A model generated the notes under the pieces. That model saw only the letters and a list, made by a program, of their open reading frames with translations. It had not been told where the DNA came from and searched no databases. Shown one piece after another: positions 6,152-15,964 of a stretch of DNA of 24,000 bases. A program made the translations under genes and the position numbers. The DNA comes from Patescibacteria group bacterium (GTDB taxonomy: Bacteria > Patescibacteriota > Saccharimonadia > CAILAD01 > BJGX01): contig JAUPVL010000042.1 of the NCBI GenBank assembly GCA_030917065.1, positions 2,419 through 26,418 on the forward strand, written 5' to 3'. Each line of letters begins with the position of its first letter. The first letter of the stretch is position 1.

Positions 6152-7954
6152 TCATTGGTAGCTCTTGGCTTGTTTGGTAAATAGTTCATGGTACACGCCT
6201 TTGTTTTTCATAAGATCGGCGTGAGTGCCTTGTTCTATTATCTTGCCGTGGTCTATTACTACTATATTGTCAGCCTCGCGCACAGTACTGAAGCGGTGTG
6301 ATATGACTATAGCGCCCTTCTGGGCTTGCCGTTTCCAGAGGCGGTGAAATATCTCGGCTTCGGCCCTGGCGTCTATAGCACTGGTGGGTTCGTCAAGTAC
6401 CAGTATAGGAGATTGCTTATAGAAAGCTCGAGCAAGGGCAATTTTCTGCCATTGTCCACCTGAGAGCTCTACCGAGTCTTCGAATACACGCGTCAGCCTC
6501 GTATTCTCTTGTTGAGCCAGTTCTTTTACAAACCCAGCCTGCGCATCGTTGAGCGCAGATTTTAATCTCTTACTATCCGGTTTATTATCAAGGTCAAAGC
6601 TGATGTTTTCTCCCACAGTCAGTGGATATCGATGAAAGTCTTGAGATATTATTGCGAGCTTCTTATACCAACTATTGAGATCTATCTTGCGTAGATCCAT
6701 GCCATCAATGAGTATTCGACCTTCTGTAGGGTCATAGAATCTCAGTAGCAACTTGGTGATAGTAGTCTTGCCGGCACCATTCACACCGATAAGCGCCATT
6801 TTTTCTTTTGATTCTAGCTTAAAGCTTACGGTATGCAGTATCTGTTTCTTGGTATTGGGGTAAGTGAAGCTAACATTTTCAAACTCGATACTAGGTACTT
6901 TGTTGTCATCTTTGAGTACGATAGGGTCTTTTGGCTTGGCCAATCGCGAAGGAGCATTCATGAAAACAAAATAATCTTCGATGTTGATGAGTTCTTCATA
7001 CACATCCTTGAAGTTGCGTACCAGTGAAGTACTGGAGTTCTCGAGTCGAGATATTAAACTATCATAGAAGGTATAGTCACCAATACTAAATATACCCTTG
7101 GTACTTATAATCTTATAAAACAACCATATACGCGTAAGTACAGCTGTTAGCACACCCGTCACATCGGCAACAGCTTGTATCTGTGAGTATTTTTTTTGTG
7201 CATTTGTTTCGATATCGTACATCTCGTTTTGATTTTTACGCATACGGCTTAAGAATGCTTTTTCAGCCATAAAAGGCCTGATCTCTTTGAGCAGATTCCA
7301 ATCCATCAACACATCTCTAAGATGCCAGTTGAACCTTCTGCGTTCAGATATCAAGAGATTGATCTTGCGCCAACTACCAGCGGTGTAGATACTCGATATT
7401 AGTCTAGGTAGAGTAGATATGACTGCTAGTACAAACAACACCCAGTTGAGTTGGAGTATGGCAACGCTGGCTATTAGTACGGTTACGATATCGGAGATCA
7501 TCTTGCTAGTACTGCGCATTACCCAGCTGATATTGAGTTTTTCTACGCGTGACAGAGTATTTTGAAATTCAGCATCCTCAAAGTGTGCAGCATCTATTTC
7601 TGAGCTACGTTTGGCAATGTGTAAATTGAGTGAGTATTGAGCCTTCAAGTCTAGTTTGGTCATGAAATAATCTTGGATGTTTCGGATCAGTGGCTCAGCT
7701 ACTCCTGCTAGAGTTGCAATACCTACTAGGTACCAGAACTTCGGAAATACCGTCGTGACCTTACCTCCTATGAATAGTGCTATGAGATTGATGATCTGAG
7801 CATATATATAGCTTCTACCTATTGATATCAGAGTAGCCAAAACATCTAATATTGGATAAATAATAGATCGCCAGCCTGTCAGCTGCCATTGCAACTTAAA
7901 TACTTGTACAAAATATTTAAGCAAGGGTTTTCTAGTCTTGGGTTTGTCTTGCAT
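6152..7954 (-). CDS. ABC transporter, fused permease/ATPase (type I exporter, MsbA-like)
   Basis: N-terminal six-helix TMD-like hydrophobic region. Walker A is GVNGAGKTT, the signature is LSGGQWQKIALARA, Walker B is ILVLDEPTSAID and the H-loop is ISHR. Confidence 0.9.
   Translation of the reverse strand: MQDKPKTRKPLLKYFVQVFKLQWQLTGWRSIIYPILDVLATLISIGRSYIYAQIINLIALFIGGKVTTVFPKFWYLVGIATLAGVAEPLIRNIQDYFMTKLDLKAQYSLNLHIAKRSSEIDAAHFEDAEFQNTLSRVEKLNISWVMRSTSKMISDIVTVLIASVAILQLNWVLFVLAVISTLPRLISSIYTAGSWRKINLLISERRRFNWHLRDVLMDWNLLKEIRPFMAEKAFLSRMRKNQNEMYDIETNAQKKYSQIQAVADVTGVLTAVLTRIWLFYKIISTKGIFSIGDYTFYDSLISRLENSSTSLVRNFKDVYEELINIEDYFVFMNAPSRLAKPKDPIVLKDDNKVPSIEFENVSFTYPNTKKQILHTVSFKLESKEKMALIGVNGAGKTTITKLLLRFYDPTEGRILIDGMDLRKIDLNSWYKKLAIISQDFHRYPLTVGENISFDLDNKPDSKRLKSALNDAQAGFVKELAQQENTRLTRVFEDSVELSGGQWQKIALARAFYKQSPILVLDEPTSAIDARAEAEIFHRLWKRQAQKGAIVISHRFSTVREADNIVVIDHGKIIEQGTHADLMKNKGVYHELFTKQAKSYQ
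6156..6176. repeat. Direct repeat copy 2, inside the last codons of the ABC gene
   Basis: Identical 21-mer to 5744-5764, encoding KQAKSYQ followed by TGA on the minus strand. Weaker similarity continues about 25 nt further downstream (minus-strand sense) in both copies. Confidence 0.85.
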
Positions 7955-8082
7955 TTAAGGGGTTATATTATAATTGCTTATTCACTTTCGCTCTTATGCT
8001 AGCAATTGTATCCTACTAGGAGCTCATCAGTACAGACCTTATCTGTAGAGTGAATTTGAAGAAGGAGAGAAGAGGAGGGGTG

Positions 8083-8154
8083 GAGCCGCAAGGCACCAGG
8101 GAGTATGAATAGTCCTTGAAGGATGTTTTCAGGGACTCCCTGGTGCTGCGGCTC
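8083..8154 (-). terminator. Long (about 20 bp) GC-rich hairpin starting at the stop codon of the 78-aa ORF; terminator-like without a U tract
   Basis: gagccgca-ag-gcaccagggagt (8083-8104) pairs with actccctggtgctgcggctc (8135-8154), with a 2-nt bulge. On the minus strand it is followed by a pyrimidine tract (cccctcctcttctctccttcttc), not a T run. Confidence 0.45.
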
Positions 8155-8389
8155 ACCACCTGCGGGCGCGGTCGAGATCTCGTTGGAGATCACGGTTCTG
8201 GGCTCGCAGGTCCTCAGCACGACGGCGCTGGAGCACTAGCAGGGTGATGAGGACGACCACGACAGCGATCAGTCCGAACACCACCGGGTAGCTTGCACAT
8301 GCCGCGATGATGAACACTCCCGCAGCTAGGGCGAATATCCCTTTCGCCAGGTTGTCGAAGAACTTCTGGACGGGCTTGGACTCAGCCAA
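8153..8389 (-). CDS. High-GC small membrane protein (78 aa) with Arg-rich helical tail; hypothetical
   Basis: SD AAGGAG precedes the ATG (revcomp of ctctccttctg). One or two hydrophobic helices (GIFALAAGVFIIAACASYPVVFGLIAVVVVLITLLVL) are followed by QRRRAEDLRAQNRDLQRDLDRARRW. Local GC is about 62% (37/60 at 8221-8280) and third positions are mostly G/C by eye. Confidence 0.6.
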   Translation of the reverse strand: MAESKPVQKFFDNLAKGIFALAAGVFIIAACASYPVVFGLIAVVVVLITLLVLQRRRAEDLRAQNRDLQRDLDRARRW

Positions 8390-8526: not shown

Positions 8527-9414
8527 ATGCCAGAATTACCAGAAGTAGAAACAGTACGTGCCGGACTTGCCGAGATACTAGTAGATCAACGTATCAAAAG
8601 TGTTAGTACAGACTGGCCCAAAAGCTTTCCGAACGATCCCAAGATAGTGCGAGACAAAGTAGTCGAGTCCACTATCTTATCTGTAGATAGACGCGGAAAG
8701 GCGCTTATCATCCCACTTAGTGGTGGGTATAGTTTACTTATACACCTCAAGATGACCGGACAGTTGGTATATAGAGCTCGCAACTCAGCCGAGGGGTTTG
8801 GCGGCGGTCACCCTACAGACAGCCTTATACACAAGCTACCAGATCGGTCTACTAGAGTGATATTTGAGCTCACTGATGGTACGTTGTTCTTCAACGATCA
8901 ACGTAAGTTTGGATATGTGAAGCTAGAAAAGTCCAAAGATATATACAAGACCAATGCTTTTTTGCGCAAATTAGGACCAGAGCCACTAACTGACGACTAT
9001 ACCTTTGAGATGTTCAAGACAGCACTCATGAAAAGACAGAATACTACTATCAAGGCTGCCATACTTGATCAGACAGTTCTTGCAGGGGTAGGCAATATCT
9101 ATGCTGATGAAGGACTGTTCGCAGCTCGCATACACCCCAGCACCAGAGTGGGCGATATTAGTACTATCAAGCTCAAACGACTGTACAACGCACTTAGAGA
9201 GGTGATGAAGCTCAGTATTGAGCTAGGAGGCAGTTCAGATAGAAACTATGTGGATGCCAAGGGCAACAAAGGCAGTTATCTCAAATTTGCCAAAGTTTTT
9301 CGTCGCGAAAAACAACCTTGTATCAATTGTAAGACTGAAATCAAAAAGATACGTGTGGCGGGCCGAGGAACCCATGTTTGTCCACATTGTCAAAAGCTAA
9401 CAACAAAAAAATAA
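8527..9414 (+). CDS. mutM: Formamidopyrimidine-DNA glycosylase (Fpg/MutM)
   Basis: Canonical N-terminus MPELPEVETV, an H2TH region, and a C-terminal zinc finger CINCKTEIKKIRVAGRGTHVCPHCQK. Confidence 0.9.
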   Translation: MPELPEVETVRAGLAEILVDQRIKSVSTDWPKSFPNDPKIVRDKVVESTILSVDRRGKALIIPLSGGYSLLIHLKMTGQLVYRARNSAEGFGGGHPTDSLIHKLPDRSTRVIFELTDGTLFFNDQRKFGYVKLEKSKDIYKTNAFLRKLGPEPLTDDYTFEMFKTALMKRQNTTIKAAILDQTVLAGVGNIYADEGLFAARIHPSTRVGDISTIKLKRLYNALREVMKLSIELGGSSDRNYVDAKGNKGSYLKFAKVFRREKQPCINCKTEIKKIRVAGRGTHVCPHCQKLTTKK

Positions 9415-12729: not shown

Positions 12730-12758
12730 TTGACAAAATGTAAGTATTTTGGTATACT
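12730..12758 (+). promoter_or_regulatory. Near-consensus promoter with no gene behind it
   Basis: TTGACA (12730-12735), a 17-nt spacer ending in TGg, then TATACT (12753-12758). It starts 14 nt after the TrmB-like stop. Confidence 0.6.
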
Positions 12759-13058
12759 TCTCTTTGTCAGGCCAACGTACCATGTTTGAGTGATAGCTAA
12801 GACTCAGTCGAAAGAACGTCCAATGCTGCTTAAAACAGAGTGCAGAGGTCGCCGAGAAGTCCTCGGCATAGACACGAGCAATGGAGAGATACCGTGGACG
12901 CTGCCTTCTCCACCACCTGAACATTTCCGGCTCCGCCGGCGCAACCAACACATTTCTGACTGAACCCACGCGACGCAAGTCGTAGACACGAGCGAAAGCT
13001 CGCAACACCAAACGGTTCTGTCGGGAACTAACTGGACCAGTCATTGGTCCTTCGTCTA

Positions 13059-13095
13059 GGGCTCGGTGCCCCCGTAACTTGAGGGCACCGAGCCC
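13059..13095 (+). repeat. 13-bp hairpin related to hairpin b of the 3' T modules
   Basis: gggctcggtgccc (13059-13071) pairs with gggcaccgagccc (13083-13095). It shares the GGCYCG...CGRGCCC frame with 15324-15349 and 15930-15953. CTACA follows twice (13099-13103 and 13113-13117). Confidence 0.55.
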
Positions 13096-13116
13096 AGACT
13101 ACACTTCGATAACTAC

Positions 13117-13141
13117 AACCAGGCATTATGCCTGGTTTTTT
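13117..13141 (+). terminator. Intrinsic terminator ending the candidate ncRNA
   Basis: aaccaggca (13117-13125) pairs with tgcctggtt (13129-13137) and runs into a T6 tract (13136-13141). Confidence 0.75.
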
Positions 13142-13258
13142 CGTACAAAATGATACAAATAGCCAATTTAATGTAATTATTAATATATCTATGACACTAA
13201 ATACACGTGTTTTAACAGGTATAGAGCTATATAAATACAAATAAACTGACAAAAACTA

Positions 13259-13287
13259 TTGACAAGTTTTAATATATTTGCTATACT
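13259..13287 (+). promoter_or_regulatory. Near-consensus promoter of the second island unit
   Basis: TTGACA (13259-13264), a 17-nt spacer ending in TGc, then TATACT (13282-13287), inside an AT-rich spacer (13142-13330). Confidence 0.6.
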
Positions 13288-13339
13288 ACCAATCAGTTCT
13301 TTGAAGTGCCAATTTCCAAAACCTTTATAGGGGGATTCT

Positions 13340-13531
13340 GTGGCTAGCACGTTCACTCGCAAGTGTGGCATGGCCACTCGCACTCCTTCTGCCTTGACTT
13401 GGGCAGTCGTGGTCGAGTGCGGCAACGGGGAGGTGCACTACTTCGAACGTAGTGCTTGCCACCCCGACGCCGTCGTGGCGTACATCCAGCGGGAGTTTCC
13501 CGACTGTGACTACGTCATGGCTCTGGCCTAA
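13340..13531 (+). CDS. Hypothetical 63-aa protein with high-GC codon usage
   Basis: GTG start preceded by GGGGGA (13330-13335). GC3 is 47/63 (75%) with only 2 A-ending codons, a coding signature typical of a high-GC donor. No family recognised. An alternative ATG start lies at 13370 without an SD. Confidence 0.5.
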   Translation: MASTFTRKCGMATRTPSALTWAVVVECGNGEVHYFERSACHPDAVVAYIQREFPDCDYVMALA

Positions 13532-14441
13532 CGACTTCGGATCGGGGGCTTGATAAGTCCTGGCAACAGAAGCCTGTAGAGTGAGCAAAAAGAAGCTCTA
13601 TAGACACTATCCGAGTATGCTCTCGACAAAAGCCGCCTGGTAGTAGGCATTGAAGCCCGAGCAATCGAGCAACTACCAACCTCGTCTGATATATCAGACG
13701 AGGAGCAAGTCTGCTGGTAAAGTGCCAGCACTGATGAGCCCGAACTATCTAGTTCAACTAGGGCGAAACTGCACTTTGTAAATACTAATTCTGTGGATGT
13801 GGCCAGTGCTACATATTAAAACATACCAATAGCAGATTGGCCGCCCACAGAAATGGTAAATACAATATCCGAACCTTGTCATTATGAGCAGTAGCTTTCG
13901 AACCGAGTATATAGGTATATATATTTAGTTCGAAAGCTATGTGCTTTCAAAAAGATAGTAAGGTCACAGCAAATGGCGGGACTGCTGCCTCACTGATGAC
14001 CTGCCTGTAGTATGCGCGTTTCCCGACACGATCGGGCCGATGCATCTACGGGCGAAATCATGAACTGATATATATGAGAGTATATATCAGCTTCAACTGC
14101 TTGGGTGTCGCAGCTCTTCGTGAAAGCGGATGAGCGCCACCCGAGCAGGATATCGCTGCCACAACAATCTGGTCGGAGAGGCATCAACTTCGACGCACTG
14201 CTCAAAACGGCGTCAAGTCGGGTGAGAGTGGTGTTCTGCGTACGTCCTTCGCAGACAGTAGGGAGGTAATAATTGATCCGAGCCCGTGCAGAATCCTGCG
14301 CCGCAAACAACGCGACTCTGATAAGAGTGGGTAAAAAAAAGTCGGATCCGGGGACCCTAGTGGCCAATGATGATGTTCCTTCCCCGGTGCACGAGTGGGT
14401 GAAACCACGAGTGTTCATGAAAGGGAACGTCAAGCTCGCGG

Positions 14442-14484
14442 CAGCTCGTCGCTCTCCGTCAGTAGACGGATTGAGCGCAGCTGC
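14442..14484. repeat. Hairpin module H, copy 1 (43 nt)
   Basis: Sequence cagctcgtcgctctcc-gtcagtagac-gga-ttgagcgcagctgc. It folds as cagct/agctg + cgctc/gagcg + tccgtc/gacgga with loop agta. Confidence 0.7.
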
Positions 14485-15005
14485 CCATATTGCGGAACCC
14501 GTCCACGACCTTGCCAGTCGCCTGGTAAGATAGTAGATACGTTGTTCTGCGAGGTCTGAGTCAATCGCCACCCAAAAAGGTAACGTGGGGTTGAAACACC
14601 CCTGGCGGTAAGATCCCGAAAGAGCTGACGTAATGCTCGAAAAAATGTGCTAACATAGGCCTTTTTCCTTACGATAAAATTCAGATAGTCGTGAGGTCGT
14701 CCACCCCTTTGGGGTCCCACTAGTTGGGGCTCCGGAGGGTCTCAACAAGAGAGCTTGAATTATCAAGCTTTGCTGCTGAGACCCTAAAAAGTCTCGAACC
14801 TTGTCATTTGATGTTAAGATTTTGCTGGATGGAGCATAGAAGTGCAGATGTAATCCAGCTACTAGGGTGTCAGTGCGCACATAAGACCCCCTTCTGAGAA
14901 GTGACTAGAGTGGACTGCCCAAACGCAGACAGCTAGACAACTTTGTCAACTCAGATTAAACCAAAAAAAGCCGATAACGCTCCAATAATTCGGCCCATAT
15001 CGCGA

Positions 15006-15048
15006 CAGCTCGTCGCTCTCCAGAGTCATCTGGATCGAGCGCAGCTGC
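15006..15048. repeat. Hairpin module H, copy 2 (43 nt)
   Basis: Sequence cagctcgtcgctctcc-agagtcatct-gga-tcgagcgcagctgc. The outer arms match copy 1 except for one position. The inner stem is tccaga/tctgga, so three base pairs changed on both strands. It lies about 65 nt upstream of ATG 15114. Confidence 0.7.
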
Positions 15049-15113
15049 TAAATCCTTGAGTTTCAATCCCGCGACTCAAGCTCGTACCACACAACACCAC
15101 TGAAGGAGGTGAA

Positions 15114-15311
15114 ATGGACGAGACCAACGACCTCGACGGCATGATCCAGGCGGCGGATCTCATGCTCACGGTCATGATGGCCGAGGGCATGACCCCCGCA
15201 GAGATCTGCCTGGAGTTCTTCGCGATGGGCCACGAGAGTGGCCACATCTGCGCACAGGCGCACGAAGAGCCCCTCGAGGACGACCCCAAGGTGTCCGCCG
15301 GCTACCTGTAA
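15114..15311 (+). CDS. Hypothetical acidic 65-aa protein with very high GC3
   Basis: A perfect SD AAGGAGGTGA (15103-15112) precedes ATG 15114. GC3 is 60/65 (92%). Local GC is 36/60 at 15121-15180. No family recognised. Confidence 0.65.
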   Translation: MDETNDLDGMIQAADLMLTVMMAEGMTPAEICLEFFAMGHESGHICAQAHEEPLEDDPKVSAGYL

Positions 15312-15360
15312 GTGCCGGCACCCGGCCCGAATCTTCACAGATTCGGGCCCCTACCAAAGA
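15288..15360 (+). repeat. 3' module T, copy 1 (two hairpins + CTACC motifs)
   Basis: Sequence aaggtgtccgccggctacctgtaagtgccggcacccggcccgaatcttcacagattcgggcccctaccaaaga. Hairpin a is gccggc (15297-15302)/gccggc (15314-15319), with the ORF stop TAA in its loop. Hairpin b is ggcccgaatct (15324-15334)/agattcgggcc (15339-15349). CTACC occurs at 15302-15306 and 15351-15355. Confidence 0.7.
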
Positions 15361-15432
15361 AGGTTACAATATAATCTCTTTTGGTCGGGAAAGTCCCGAC
15401 TCACTCAGTGAGTAGCACCTTGGAGCAATCAA

Positions 15433-15885
15433 ATGGAAGATTTCAAAGAGTTGTTCGATCGGTTTCTGACCGTCGTGCGTGTGTCCAACGACATCCCTGA
15501 CGAGATGACTATCGAGGAGTTTCTGAGCAAGAAGTGGAACTTCTGCGACCCAAGCCCTTGCAACATGAGAGTGGAGGTCACTTGGGATGGCAGCTACTCC
15601 CTGTGGAGCCTTCGCTTCGACAGCACGGGTCGAGTCAACGATGAGCGCCTCTGGATCCGTCGCGACTGCACGCATGAGGAGGCCATCACCCAGGCCATCG
15701 GCCAAAATATGGGCGGCAACGTTGTCGAAATCTTGACCAAAGTCATCCCAGACATTCAGATGACCTCTGGGACTGGTGACGATTCGGAGGAGTTCTGGAT
15801 CGTTTGGGAGTGGTACAGCCCAATTTTCACCGGGAAGGAGGACAGTGGTCTGCAGGACGGAGATTGGCAAGAGGCCTTGCTCTAG
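15433..15885 (+). CDS. Hypothetical Trp-rich acidic 150-aa protein
   Basis: SD GGAG (15422-15425) with 7-nt spacing precedes ATG 15433. Third positions look mostly G/C by eye (not counted). Two tight 5' UTR hairpins lie at 15384-15400 and 15400-15412. It runs in the same direction as the flanking modules. The 187-aa antisense ORF 15364..15927 is treated as a shadow ORF. Confidence 0.6.
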   Translation: MEDFKELFDRFLTVVRVSNDIPDEMTIEEFLSKKWNFCDPSPCNMRVEVTWDGSYSLWSLRFDSTGRVNDERLWIRRDCTHEEAITQAIGQNMGGNVVEILTKVIPDIQMTSGTGDDSEEFWIVWEWYSPIFTGKEDSGLQDGDWQEALL

Positions 15886-15893
15886 AGAGTGCA

Positions 15894-15964
15894 AAGGTGA
15901 CCGCCGGCTACCTGTAAATGCCGGCACTCGGCTCGAGTCTTTTGACTCGAGCCCCTACCAAAGA
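15894..15964 (+). repeat. 3' module T, copy 2
   Basis: Sequence aaggtgaccgccggctacctgtaaatgccggcactcggctcgagtcttttgactcgagcccctaccaaaga. Hairpin a is conserved. Hairpin b is ggctcgagtc (15930-15939)/gactcgagcc (15944-15953), with two compensatory pair changes relative to copy 1. CTACC occurs at 15908-15912 and 15955-15959. Confidence 0.7.

Follow-up and report, generated by a model that had tools for sequence, protein, structure and literature searches.

The DNA analysed here (the window, 24,000 nt; positions 2,419 to 26,418 of contig JAUPVL010000042.1, assembly GCA_030917065.1) comes from a Patescibacteria group bacterium of the Saccharimonadia and carries rpoD, polA, fpg, holA, rpsT, a gene for a TrmB-like regulator, a DHH phosphoesterase gene, truB, rpsO and pnp. 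An identical sequence is present on the JGI metagenome contig Ga0451708_0000316. The closest relatives of the TrmB-like protein were found in metagenome-assembled genomes of Candidatus Saccharibacteria/Saccharimonadales. The element under study is a GC-rich unit of 378 nt that follows the TrmB-like gene (12765-13142 on the + strand; all positions are those of the window). An earlier reading made from the letters alone (the sequence-only reading) had described it as an independent promoter-to-terminator unit for a folded RNA, which is supported by the promoter, the terminator and the z-score of the fold, and had called it an orphan with no open reading frame (ORF). Neither of these two descriptions held: an RNA locus occupies the place downstream of the TrmB-like gene in about 30 Saccharibacteria genomes, with this unit as its local representative, and the unit contains an eight-codon mini-ORF led by a Shine-Dalgarno sequence (SD), running from GUG at 12894 to UGA at 12920, whose start, stop and frame are conserved in relatives.

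The promoter had been read as a full consensus, TTGACA-17-TGgTATACT, starting 14 nt past the TrmB-like stop (12716), and it was present there with a score of 11/12 and the TG extension. Just four sites in 10 kb scored 11-12/12, and every one of them precedes a transcription unit; from the position of the promoter, transcription of the unit would start near 12765. The size and composition given earlier (about 375 nt at 55% GC) were measured as 378 nt and 54% GC, compared with about 33-40% GC for the TrmB-like gene and the spacer beside the unit and ~40% GC for the genome. The 13-bp hairpin followed by a canonical intrinsic terminator was also recovered, the 13-bp core (13059-13071/13083-13095) being lengthened by GUCU/AGAC to 17 bp. 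The terminator at 13117 is the first and only strong + strand terminator after the TrmB-like gene, so transcripts reading through from that gene must also stop at 13117-13137, and, as no terminator lies between the two, the unit is probably also the 3' end of the TrmB-like mRNA. Substitutions in the terminator of relatives fall mostly in the loop, and the single varying stem pair remains paired. An inverted repeat, AAGTAT-N6-ATACTT (12741-12760), overlaps the -10 box of the unit and could be an operator. A different palindrome lies over the -35 box in two relatives (loci L011 and L012), and all these palindromes could be candidate operators for the adjacent TrmB-like regulator.

Comparison with known RNA families was negative throughout. 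Rfam 15 gave no match anywhere in the window at gathering thresholds and nothing relevant at E <= 10 with the unit alone, related units (including those of L012 and L171) gave no Rfam match either, and no tRNA or transfer-messenger RNA (tmRNA) was detected in the window by ARAGORN. The by-eye judgement that the unit is not RNase P RNA, tmRNA, signal recognition particle (SRP) RNA or 6S RNA was borne out at both thresholds.

Long ORFs were assessed in an alignment of the unit with its closest relatives, L009, L010 and L089 (about 84% identity). A 46-codon ORF (12823-12963), earlier judged not to be a gene, is indeed not one, as its AUG is missing in these relatives and indels of 1-2 nt break its frame. 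It had also been taken for the only ORF, which is incorrect: the + strand holds ORFs of 34 and 26 codons as well, and several more lie on the - strand. All ORFs of at least 20 codons on both strands were rejected for missing starts, shifted frames or mostly non-synonymous changes; the 34-codon ORF is frameshifted in L009, and the 26-codon ORF, which starts with GUG, is retained only through regional conservation, its substitutions being mostly non-synonymous. A phage or mobile origin was likewise discarded, with no similarity among 50,697 phage records and no exact match of a conserved 19-mer in viral contigs.

The occurrence of equivalent units was followed in relatives sampled with the TrmB-like protein as an anchor (80 loci from genomes and 80 from metagenomes). 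About 30 Saccharibacteria loci had a sigma-70 promoter 15-90 nt past the TrmB-like stop, together with a GC-enriched unit of 325-900 nt ending in an intrinsic terminator on the same strand. The usual order at the 3' side in relatives is a long hairpin, a G-poor spacer, the terminator, an AT-rich gap and a second strong promoter; the combination of a long GC-rich hairpin, G-poor spacer and terminator, which spans 13054-13143 in the window, was recognised by eye in L014, L016, L017, L019, L024 and L026. The primary sequence of the units can be aligned only inside sub-groups, and one such sub-group of six sequences showed compensatory changes at 33 of 90 predicted pairs. Direct searches from the window unit with blastn and nhmmer stayed within a close clade of relatives at about 84% identity. 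No description of a Saccharibacteria or candidate phyla radiation (CPR) RNA at a TrmB-like-adjacent locus was found in the literature, and the RNA family after the TrmB-like gene, which has no Rfam model, is apparently undescribed and fast-evolving.

The window unit was connected with the distant members through bridging sequences. A covariance model of the distant 5' domain (R1) matched 21 loci, all just after the TrmB-like gene, and did not match the window; a model of the window-type junction domain (R2) matched only the clade with a TrmB identity of about 75% or more. The bridging units were obtained via a 75%-identical TrmB protein (L169) and via the neighbouring 63-aa protein (L171-L177). 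In L169, L171 and L176, the 5' part shows the typical closing helix, SD, MDGI* mini-ORF and hairpin H of the family, and it continues into sequence clearly homologous to window 12894-13144. With the L169 unit as query, nhmmer gave an E value of 3e-33 for the window and values of 2.5e-5 to 3e-4 for L012, L011 and L014. Since the distant 5' domain and the window-type 3' domain are joined in these units, the window unit belongs to the family, and as the bridging units carry the MDGI* domain at their 5' end, the window-type 5' domain is a replacement confined to a small sub-clade. A profile search found this domain (12765-12868) only in the window, L009, L173, L175, L010 and L089, in near-identical form, and revealed no second copy in the window. 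It contains AUG UUU GAG UGA (12782-12793) without an SD.

In the window itself, the mini-ORF encodes MDAAFSTT*, and its stop lies inside a nearly invariant motif, CCACCUGA, which reads CCACUUGA in L176. The corresponding peptide is MDAAYSTT* in L009 and L173 and MDAFFSAAT* in L010 and L089, whereas the bridging sequences have GAGGAG, 5 nt and then AUG GGU GGA CUU UUC CUU CCC ACC (ACC) UGA, that is MGGLFLPT(T); MGGLFFPTT is also among the versions present in relatives. The SD, start, stop and frame are kept in six distinct sequences, with the start alternating between AUG and GUG. Two independent indels inside the mini-ORF are both of 3 nt, and indels of 1, 2 and 4 nt occur just downstream. In the predicted fold, codons 4-6 form pairs with the window SD (12883-12888), as do the last codons with the start region, and this SD/mini-ORF helix (columns 4-9/26-31) shows double changes. 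SDs comparable to that of the window unit precede small GC-rich ORFs of this genome. Because the mini-ORF is conserved, a purely non-coding reading of the unit is not secure, and from these comparisons the unit seems better described as a structured RNA with an embedded mini-ORF that is probably translated.

Mini-ORFs are also widespread in the rest of the family. In relatives, an AUG is preceded by a strong SD, GGGGG or GGAGG, and a stop lies 4-5 codons past it, the peptides of this first mini-ORF including MDGI*, MGAL*, MGGV* and MGEGL*, and a second mini-ORF (MGSI*, MEGI*, MGGI* and others) is often present about 100 nt downstream of the first. SD-led ORFs of at most 12 codons were counted in 30 of 34 units, 45 of them altogether, against 8.1 +/- 2.2 units (maximum 14) and 9.5 ORFs in total after dinucleotide shuffling, a control that overstates the significance because the units counted are related; most of the 34 have no alignable sequence in common. 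In an alignment of 18 distant 5' domains, the start was always there (AUG, and GUG once), followed 4-5 codons on by an in-frame stop that was UAA, UAG or UGA and never UGG.

The fold of these distant 5' domains was derived sequence by sequence, as RNAalifold on a MAFFT alignment of the 18 missed the closing helix owing to register errors. In separate minimum free energy (MFE) folds, most members had one nested architecture in common, in which a closing helix surrounds an SD paired with a C-rich strand and an ORF hairpin with the stop in or near its loop. A hand-written structure for six of the sequences contained 8 double-change pairs, against 3.0 in shuffles. Hairpin H occurs at the same spot after the closing helix in other family members, for example as CCCCAGG-AAGGU-CCUGGGG, and its helix (helix 4) showed double changes at 5 of 7 pairs in the distant group. 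On these predicted folds, the hallmark of the family would be one or two SD-led mini-ORFs of 3-11 sense codons with their SDs buried in helices.

An SD-led mini-ORF was also seen in distant Patescibacteria with a TrmB identity of 34-40% (L053, L055, L061, L063, L065, L134, L135, L141 and L047), where a strong SD and an AUG GAY mini-ORF (MDG*, MDGD*, MDGL*, MDL* or MDPMAS*) lie 80-170 nt past the TrmB-like gene. At most of the distant loci inspected, a terminator comes next, and then an apparent mnmA-like gene (tRNA 2-thiouridylase), assigned by its N-terminal motif only. Given these distant cases, the pairing of TrmB and mini-ORF may predate Saccharibacteria.

The predicted fold of the window RNA (Table 1) is stable, with an MFE of -142 kcal/mol on the + strand (z = -5.4 relative to dinucleotide shuffles). 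As a stable fold was obtained for the - strand too (z = -4.5), the orientation rests on the promoter and the terminator and not on the z-score. In the alignment with L009, L010 and L089, changes are rarer in paired than in unpaired columns (odds ratios 0.51 and 0.36; p = 0.015 and 0.0007). Both GNRA tetraloop hairpins singled out earlier, GCAA (12971-12982) and GAAA (12989-13002), were found. The consensus of the 3' domain, from six sequences, comprises seven elements, namely the SD/mini-ORF helix, the CCGGC hairpin, the junction, the hairpin at 13034-13050, the 17-bp hairpin, the spacer and the terminator, and 96% of the cells were paired in four sequences. Eight pairs of this domain showed double changes, compared with 2.7 +/- 1.3 in shuffles (0 of 500 reached eight) and 1-3 in slid controls; with so few sequences, which also served to derive the structure, this covariation is rated as moderate support for the predicted structure. 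L171 and L176 have an additional hairpin inserted at the 13034-13050 position. The 17-bp hairpin would be long enough for RNase III or for a protein site. A switch formed through the repeated UAGACACGAGC (12869 and 12983) was considered and dropped, as the repeat is not conserved in L171 and L176.

Table 1. Features of the structured RNA unit and of its surroundings in the window
Feature	Position	Strand	Description
Four top-scoring promoter sites	11802; 12730; 13259; 16008		TrmB; structured RNA unit; next operon; DHH gene
Sigma-70 promoter of the unit	12730-12758	+	-35 TTGACA (12730-12735), 17-nt spacer, extended -10 TGgTATACT ending at 12758
Lineage-specific 5' domain	12765-12850	+	Closing helix 12770-12773/12847-12850 around a long irregular hairpin
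Hairpin H	12851-12867	+	GCCGAG-AAGUC-CUCGGC
SD-like GGAGAG	12883-12888	+	5 nt upstream of GUG; predicted pairing with CUUCUC inside the mini-ORF
Mini-ORF 2	12894-12920	+	GUG GAC GCU GCC UUC UCC ACC ACC UGA = MDAAFSTT*
Small hairpin CCGGC-UCC-GCCGG	12927-12939	+	Right after the mini-ORF stop; 5/5 pairs identical in 6 sequences
Three-way junction	12954-13026	+	Helix 12954-12966/13014-13026 encloses the GCAA (12971-12982) and GAAA (12989-13002) hairpins
Hairpin GGACCAG-UCA-UUGGUCC	13034-13050	+	A-U to G-C double change in L169
Long 17-bp hairpin	13054-13099	+	GUCU-A-GGGCUCGGUGCCC ... GGGCACCGAGCCC-AGAC; stem strands invariant, loop variable
G-poor single-stranded spacer	13100-13116	+	UACACUUCGAUAACUAC; sequence and length variable
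Intrinsic terminator	13117-13143	+	9-bp stem, 3-nt loop, U tract; stem-loop and T run from 13117-13137
Small ORFs	13340-13531; 15114-15311; 15433-15885		63 aa; 65 aa (strong SD); 150 aa

The interpretation favoured here, with a confidence somewhat above even, is that of a structured regulatory RNA whose fold is coupled to translation of the mini-ORF, the window unit being the local member of an undescribed TrmB-adjacent family of Saccharibacteria. It builds on what was observed, namely the gene signals, the family membership, the conservation of the mini-ORF and the structure of the 3' domain. An RNA of about 375 nt would be made from its own strong promoter and ended by its own terminator; ribosome loading and passage over the mini-ORF would remodel the SD helix, the invariant CCGGC hairpin and the junction behind it, and the activity or the stability of the RNA would thereby be coupled to its translational status. 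The peptide itself would not be the product that matters: as the peptides are not conserved across the family but start, stop and frame are kept, ribosome engagement appears to be what counts.

Several points weigh against this interpretation. Transcription, translation of the mini-ORF and the regulatory output are all deduced from sequence. The covariation tests used 4-6 sequences with a structure taken from those same sequences, and the relatedness of the units inflates the shuffle comparison. Compared with the GGAGG or GGGGG found elsewhere in the family, the GGAGAG of the window is a weaker SD, it lies in a predicted helix and it precedes a GUG start; the purine-rich "SD" could be a mere helix strand, and the stop could belong to the CCACCUGA motif. 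Model R1 misses the window, and the window-type 5' and central domains occur in a narrow clade only, so membership in the family rests on synteny and on the bridging sequences. SD-based arguments also weigh less because many genes of this genome have no SD. In a set of 18 ORF upstream regions, several housekeeping genes were found without an SD and with a -10 box a few bases from the ATG, such as fpg at 8527, and from this arrangement these genes look leaderless. Strong SDs precede the small GC-rich ORFs.

The most serious alternative, which is nonetheless considered unlikely, is a purely non-coding small RNA (sRNA), or a structured 3' untranslated region (UTR) of the TrmB-like mRNA, in which SD, start and stop are by-products that no ribosome engages. 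It would fit an SD that is paired in the consensus structure, a stop embedded in a nearly invariant motif, a peptide that is poorly conserved family-wide, the weak SD and GUG start of the window and the lack of a terminator between the TrmB-like gene and the unit. However, mini-ORFs occur at about four times the shuffle frequency and in units without alignable sequence, the identity of the stop varies and yet it is always a stop, the start swaps between AUG and GUG and never to a non-start triplet, and every indel in the mini-ORF of the window type is of 3 nt, all of which tell against this reading.

The opposite alternative, an mRNA for a micropeptide of 8-9 residues (M-x-x-x-F-x-x-T-T) with the remainder as a long structured UTR, is quite improbable. 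The peptides of the clade with the window-type 3' domain (MDAAFSTT, MDAAYSTT, MDAFFSAAT, MGGLFLPT(T) and MGGLFFPTT) do have some similarity, and their frame is kept, but most substitutions are non-synonymous, the 3-5-mers of other members (MGSI, MSGI, MEGI, MGGI) are unrelated, and about 350 of the 378 nt, invariant helices included, would be left unexplained.

Scarcely any better placed, and if anything slightly less credible, is a cis-acting leader or attenuator of the downstream small-protein operon (63-aa ORF, 13340), in which translation of the mini-ORF would control read-through of the terminator at 13117. An SD, a short ORF and a terminator make up the architecture of a leader-peptide attenuator, and the unit and the downstream operon were syntenic in all the relatives examined. 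Against this, a consensus promoter of the operon (13259-13287; 11/12, with TG) follows an AT-rich spacer of about 115 nt, as it does in relatives, the mini-ORF lies about 200 nt upstream of the terminator, and the MFE and consensus folds offered no alternative partner for the terminator strands, no dedicated search having been made. Known leader-peptide and upstream ORF (uORF) attenuators (trpL, ermCL, the cat-86 leader and, as a comparison case, the ilvB uORF of Corynebacterium; PMC11109978) resemble the family in having an SD, a start, a very short ORF and an in-frame stop in helices, a terminator hairpin on the same RNA and a reliance on the act of translation over the peptide, which would apply here too. 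They differ in that no regulated main ORF is present on the transcript of the unit, where a strong terminator and a separate promoter intervene, and in that the family RNA is 325-900 nt long and has several further conserved domains.

A very divergent housekeeping RNA (RNase P, tmRNA, 6S or SRP) missed by Rfam models is a very remote prospect. The size suits RNase P RNA or tmRNA, no tmRNA was detected in the window though relatives have one nearby, and RNase P RNAs of CPR bacteria often fall below Rfam thresholds, cut-offs as low as 5 bits having been needed (PMC8172020). As they can escape Rfam in this way, the P4 motif was inspected by hand. Neither the unit nor those of L012 and L171 matched RF00010 or RF00011 at gathering thresholds or at E <= 10, and none of the other housekeeping families matched them at E <= 10; the consensus strands of the P4 helix (GGAAAGUCC ... 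ACAGAAnCCGGCUUA) were absent, with no 3' P4 strand on the + strand. The sole AAGUCC (12857-12862) belongs to a local hairpin, as its loop and 3' strand, and reads AGAUCC or AAAUCC in L009 and L010 (variable loop AGAUC or AAAUC in the clade). Furthermore, the 5' domain was swapped between sub-clades, which is incompatible with a universal catalytic core. RNase P RNA is like the unit in its size, in being GC-rich where the genome is AT-rich and in having a promoter and a terminator of its own, and unlike it in the P4 strands, the Rfam signal and the core conserved across close relatives, all of which the unit lacks. tmRNA (RF00023) resembles the unit as a stable, structured RNA (about 350 nt) that contains a short ORF with its stop at a hairpin and that is encoded in the same neighbourhood in relatives, which have both RNAs, with a normal tmRNA 2-3 kb downstream of the unit. 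However, tmRNA has a tRNA-like domain and a CCA end and no SD or start, and the unit is the reverse, without a tRNA-like domain, T-arm or CCA end and negative with both ARAGORN and Rfam. 6S and SRP RNA gave no Rfam match, and the predicted fold is multi-domain and not a single rod.

Finally, a chance arrangement or a decaying remnant without function, which the rapid turnover of primary sequence and the narrow conservation of exact sequence might suggest, is hardly credible: about 30 diverged genomes have kept a promoter, a terminator, the size class, the GC excess and mini-ORFs at this locus, and the loops vary on stems that are invariant.

Among known systems, dual-function sRNAs such as SgrS/SgrT, RNAIII/delta-haemolysin, SR1/SR1P and the attenuator-derived rnTrpL/peTrpL are, like the unit, independent terminator-ended structured RNAs with a small translatable ORF, which in the unit is a predicted one. 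They are unlike it in that the ORFs of the family have 3-11 sense codons (8 in the window) and peptides that are not conserved; to our knowledge, the mini-ORFs of the family are far shorter than the functional peptides encoded by sRNAs. Embedded sRNAs of 3' UTRs with an internal promoter, of the DapZ or MicL type, are similar in having a promoter just past the stop of the upstream gene and a terminator common to both, and different in that the promoter of the unit lies in the intergenic gap of 13 nt and not inside the coding region. On this comparison, what would be new is the RNA family, and the kinds to which it may belong, uORF-bearing or dual-function sRNAs, are already known.

The region around the unit contains further elements. 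The promoter at 13259-13287 heads about 2.7 kb (13259-15960) of 50-60% GC with small ORFs only, for which Pfam gave no matches (63-, 65- and 150-aa ORFs). Conserved versions of the 63-aa ORF occur in L009 and L169, and of the 65-aa ORF in L014 and L169; as the nucleotide identity to distant relatives between the small ORFs is about 77%, these stretches may be structured RNA. A 73-nt module is duplicated with 90% identity (15288-15360 and 15894-15964) and supplies the 3' end of the 65-aa ORF in one copy and of the 150-aa ORF in the other. Both ORFs end in ...AGYL*, with the stop in a GCCGGC hairpin loop; next come a second hairpin and CCCCUACCAAAG. In L012, L014, L016 and others, a standard tmRNA was found after the homologue of the 65-aa ORF. 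No tmRNA was detectable at that locus in the window, L009 or L169, and the window has the 150-aa ORF there instead. A long hairpin of about 49 nt, UCGCGRCAGCUCGUCGCUCUCC...GGAUYGAGCGCAGCUGC, is repeated at 14436-14484 and 15000-15048; L014 (about 8556-8603) and L169 (about 6905-6950) have it too.

Two candidate type III hammerhead ribozymes were detected in the window. The first, at 13704-13773 (+), scored 29.8 bits (E = 0.0014), below the gathering score of 48.5, and has an intact CUGAUGA / GAAA core and a GUC cleavage site; an equivalent lies at about 6256-6325 in L169, and L024, L037 and L029 have hammerhead matches above the gathering score in the region downstream of TrmB. The second, at 7980-8055 (-), scored 36.6 bits (E = 3.5e-6 in a 700-nt search) with a long insertion in stem II. 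It lies just downstream of an ORF for a membrane-like protein of 78 aa (8153-8389, -) with a promoter-like site at 8470-8442, and candidate and ORF are both within an intergenic region of 53-60% GC.

For annotation, these results supply a signature, that is a GC-rich unit past the TrmB-like gene with a promoter, a mini-ORF, a long hairpin and a terminator, and they indicate that "no ORF" calls can overlook functional mini-ORFs. No described regulatory RNA was found in the literature for Saccharibacteria or other CPR bacteria. As the genomes of the group are small and a strongly promoted RNA is kept at one locus across it, an important role is likely. The extreme turnover of sequence together with the persistence of SD-led mini-ORFs points to translation itself controlling an RNA, an idea that can be tested in cultivated TM7 strains. 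More speculatively, and with rather low confidence, Saccharibacteria, and possibly other Patescibacteria with an SD-led "MDG..." mini-ORF past a TrmB-like gene, may have a class of translation-gated RNAs, abundant and structured, whose conformation and output would be set by ribosomes initiating on SD-sequestered mini-ORFs of 3-11 sense codons. These organisms are unable to make their own amino acids, and many mini-ORFs of the family are Gly-rich. If true, a translation-gated RNA would act in these bacteria as a direct sensor of translational capacity or of aminoacyl-tRNA supply.

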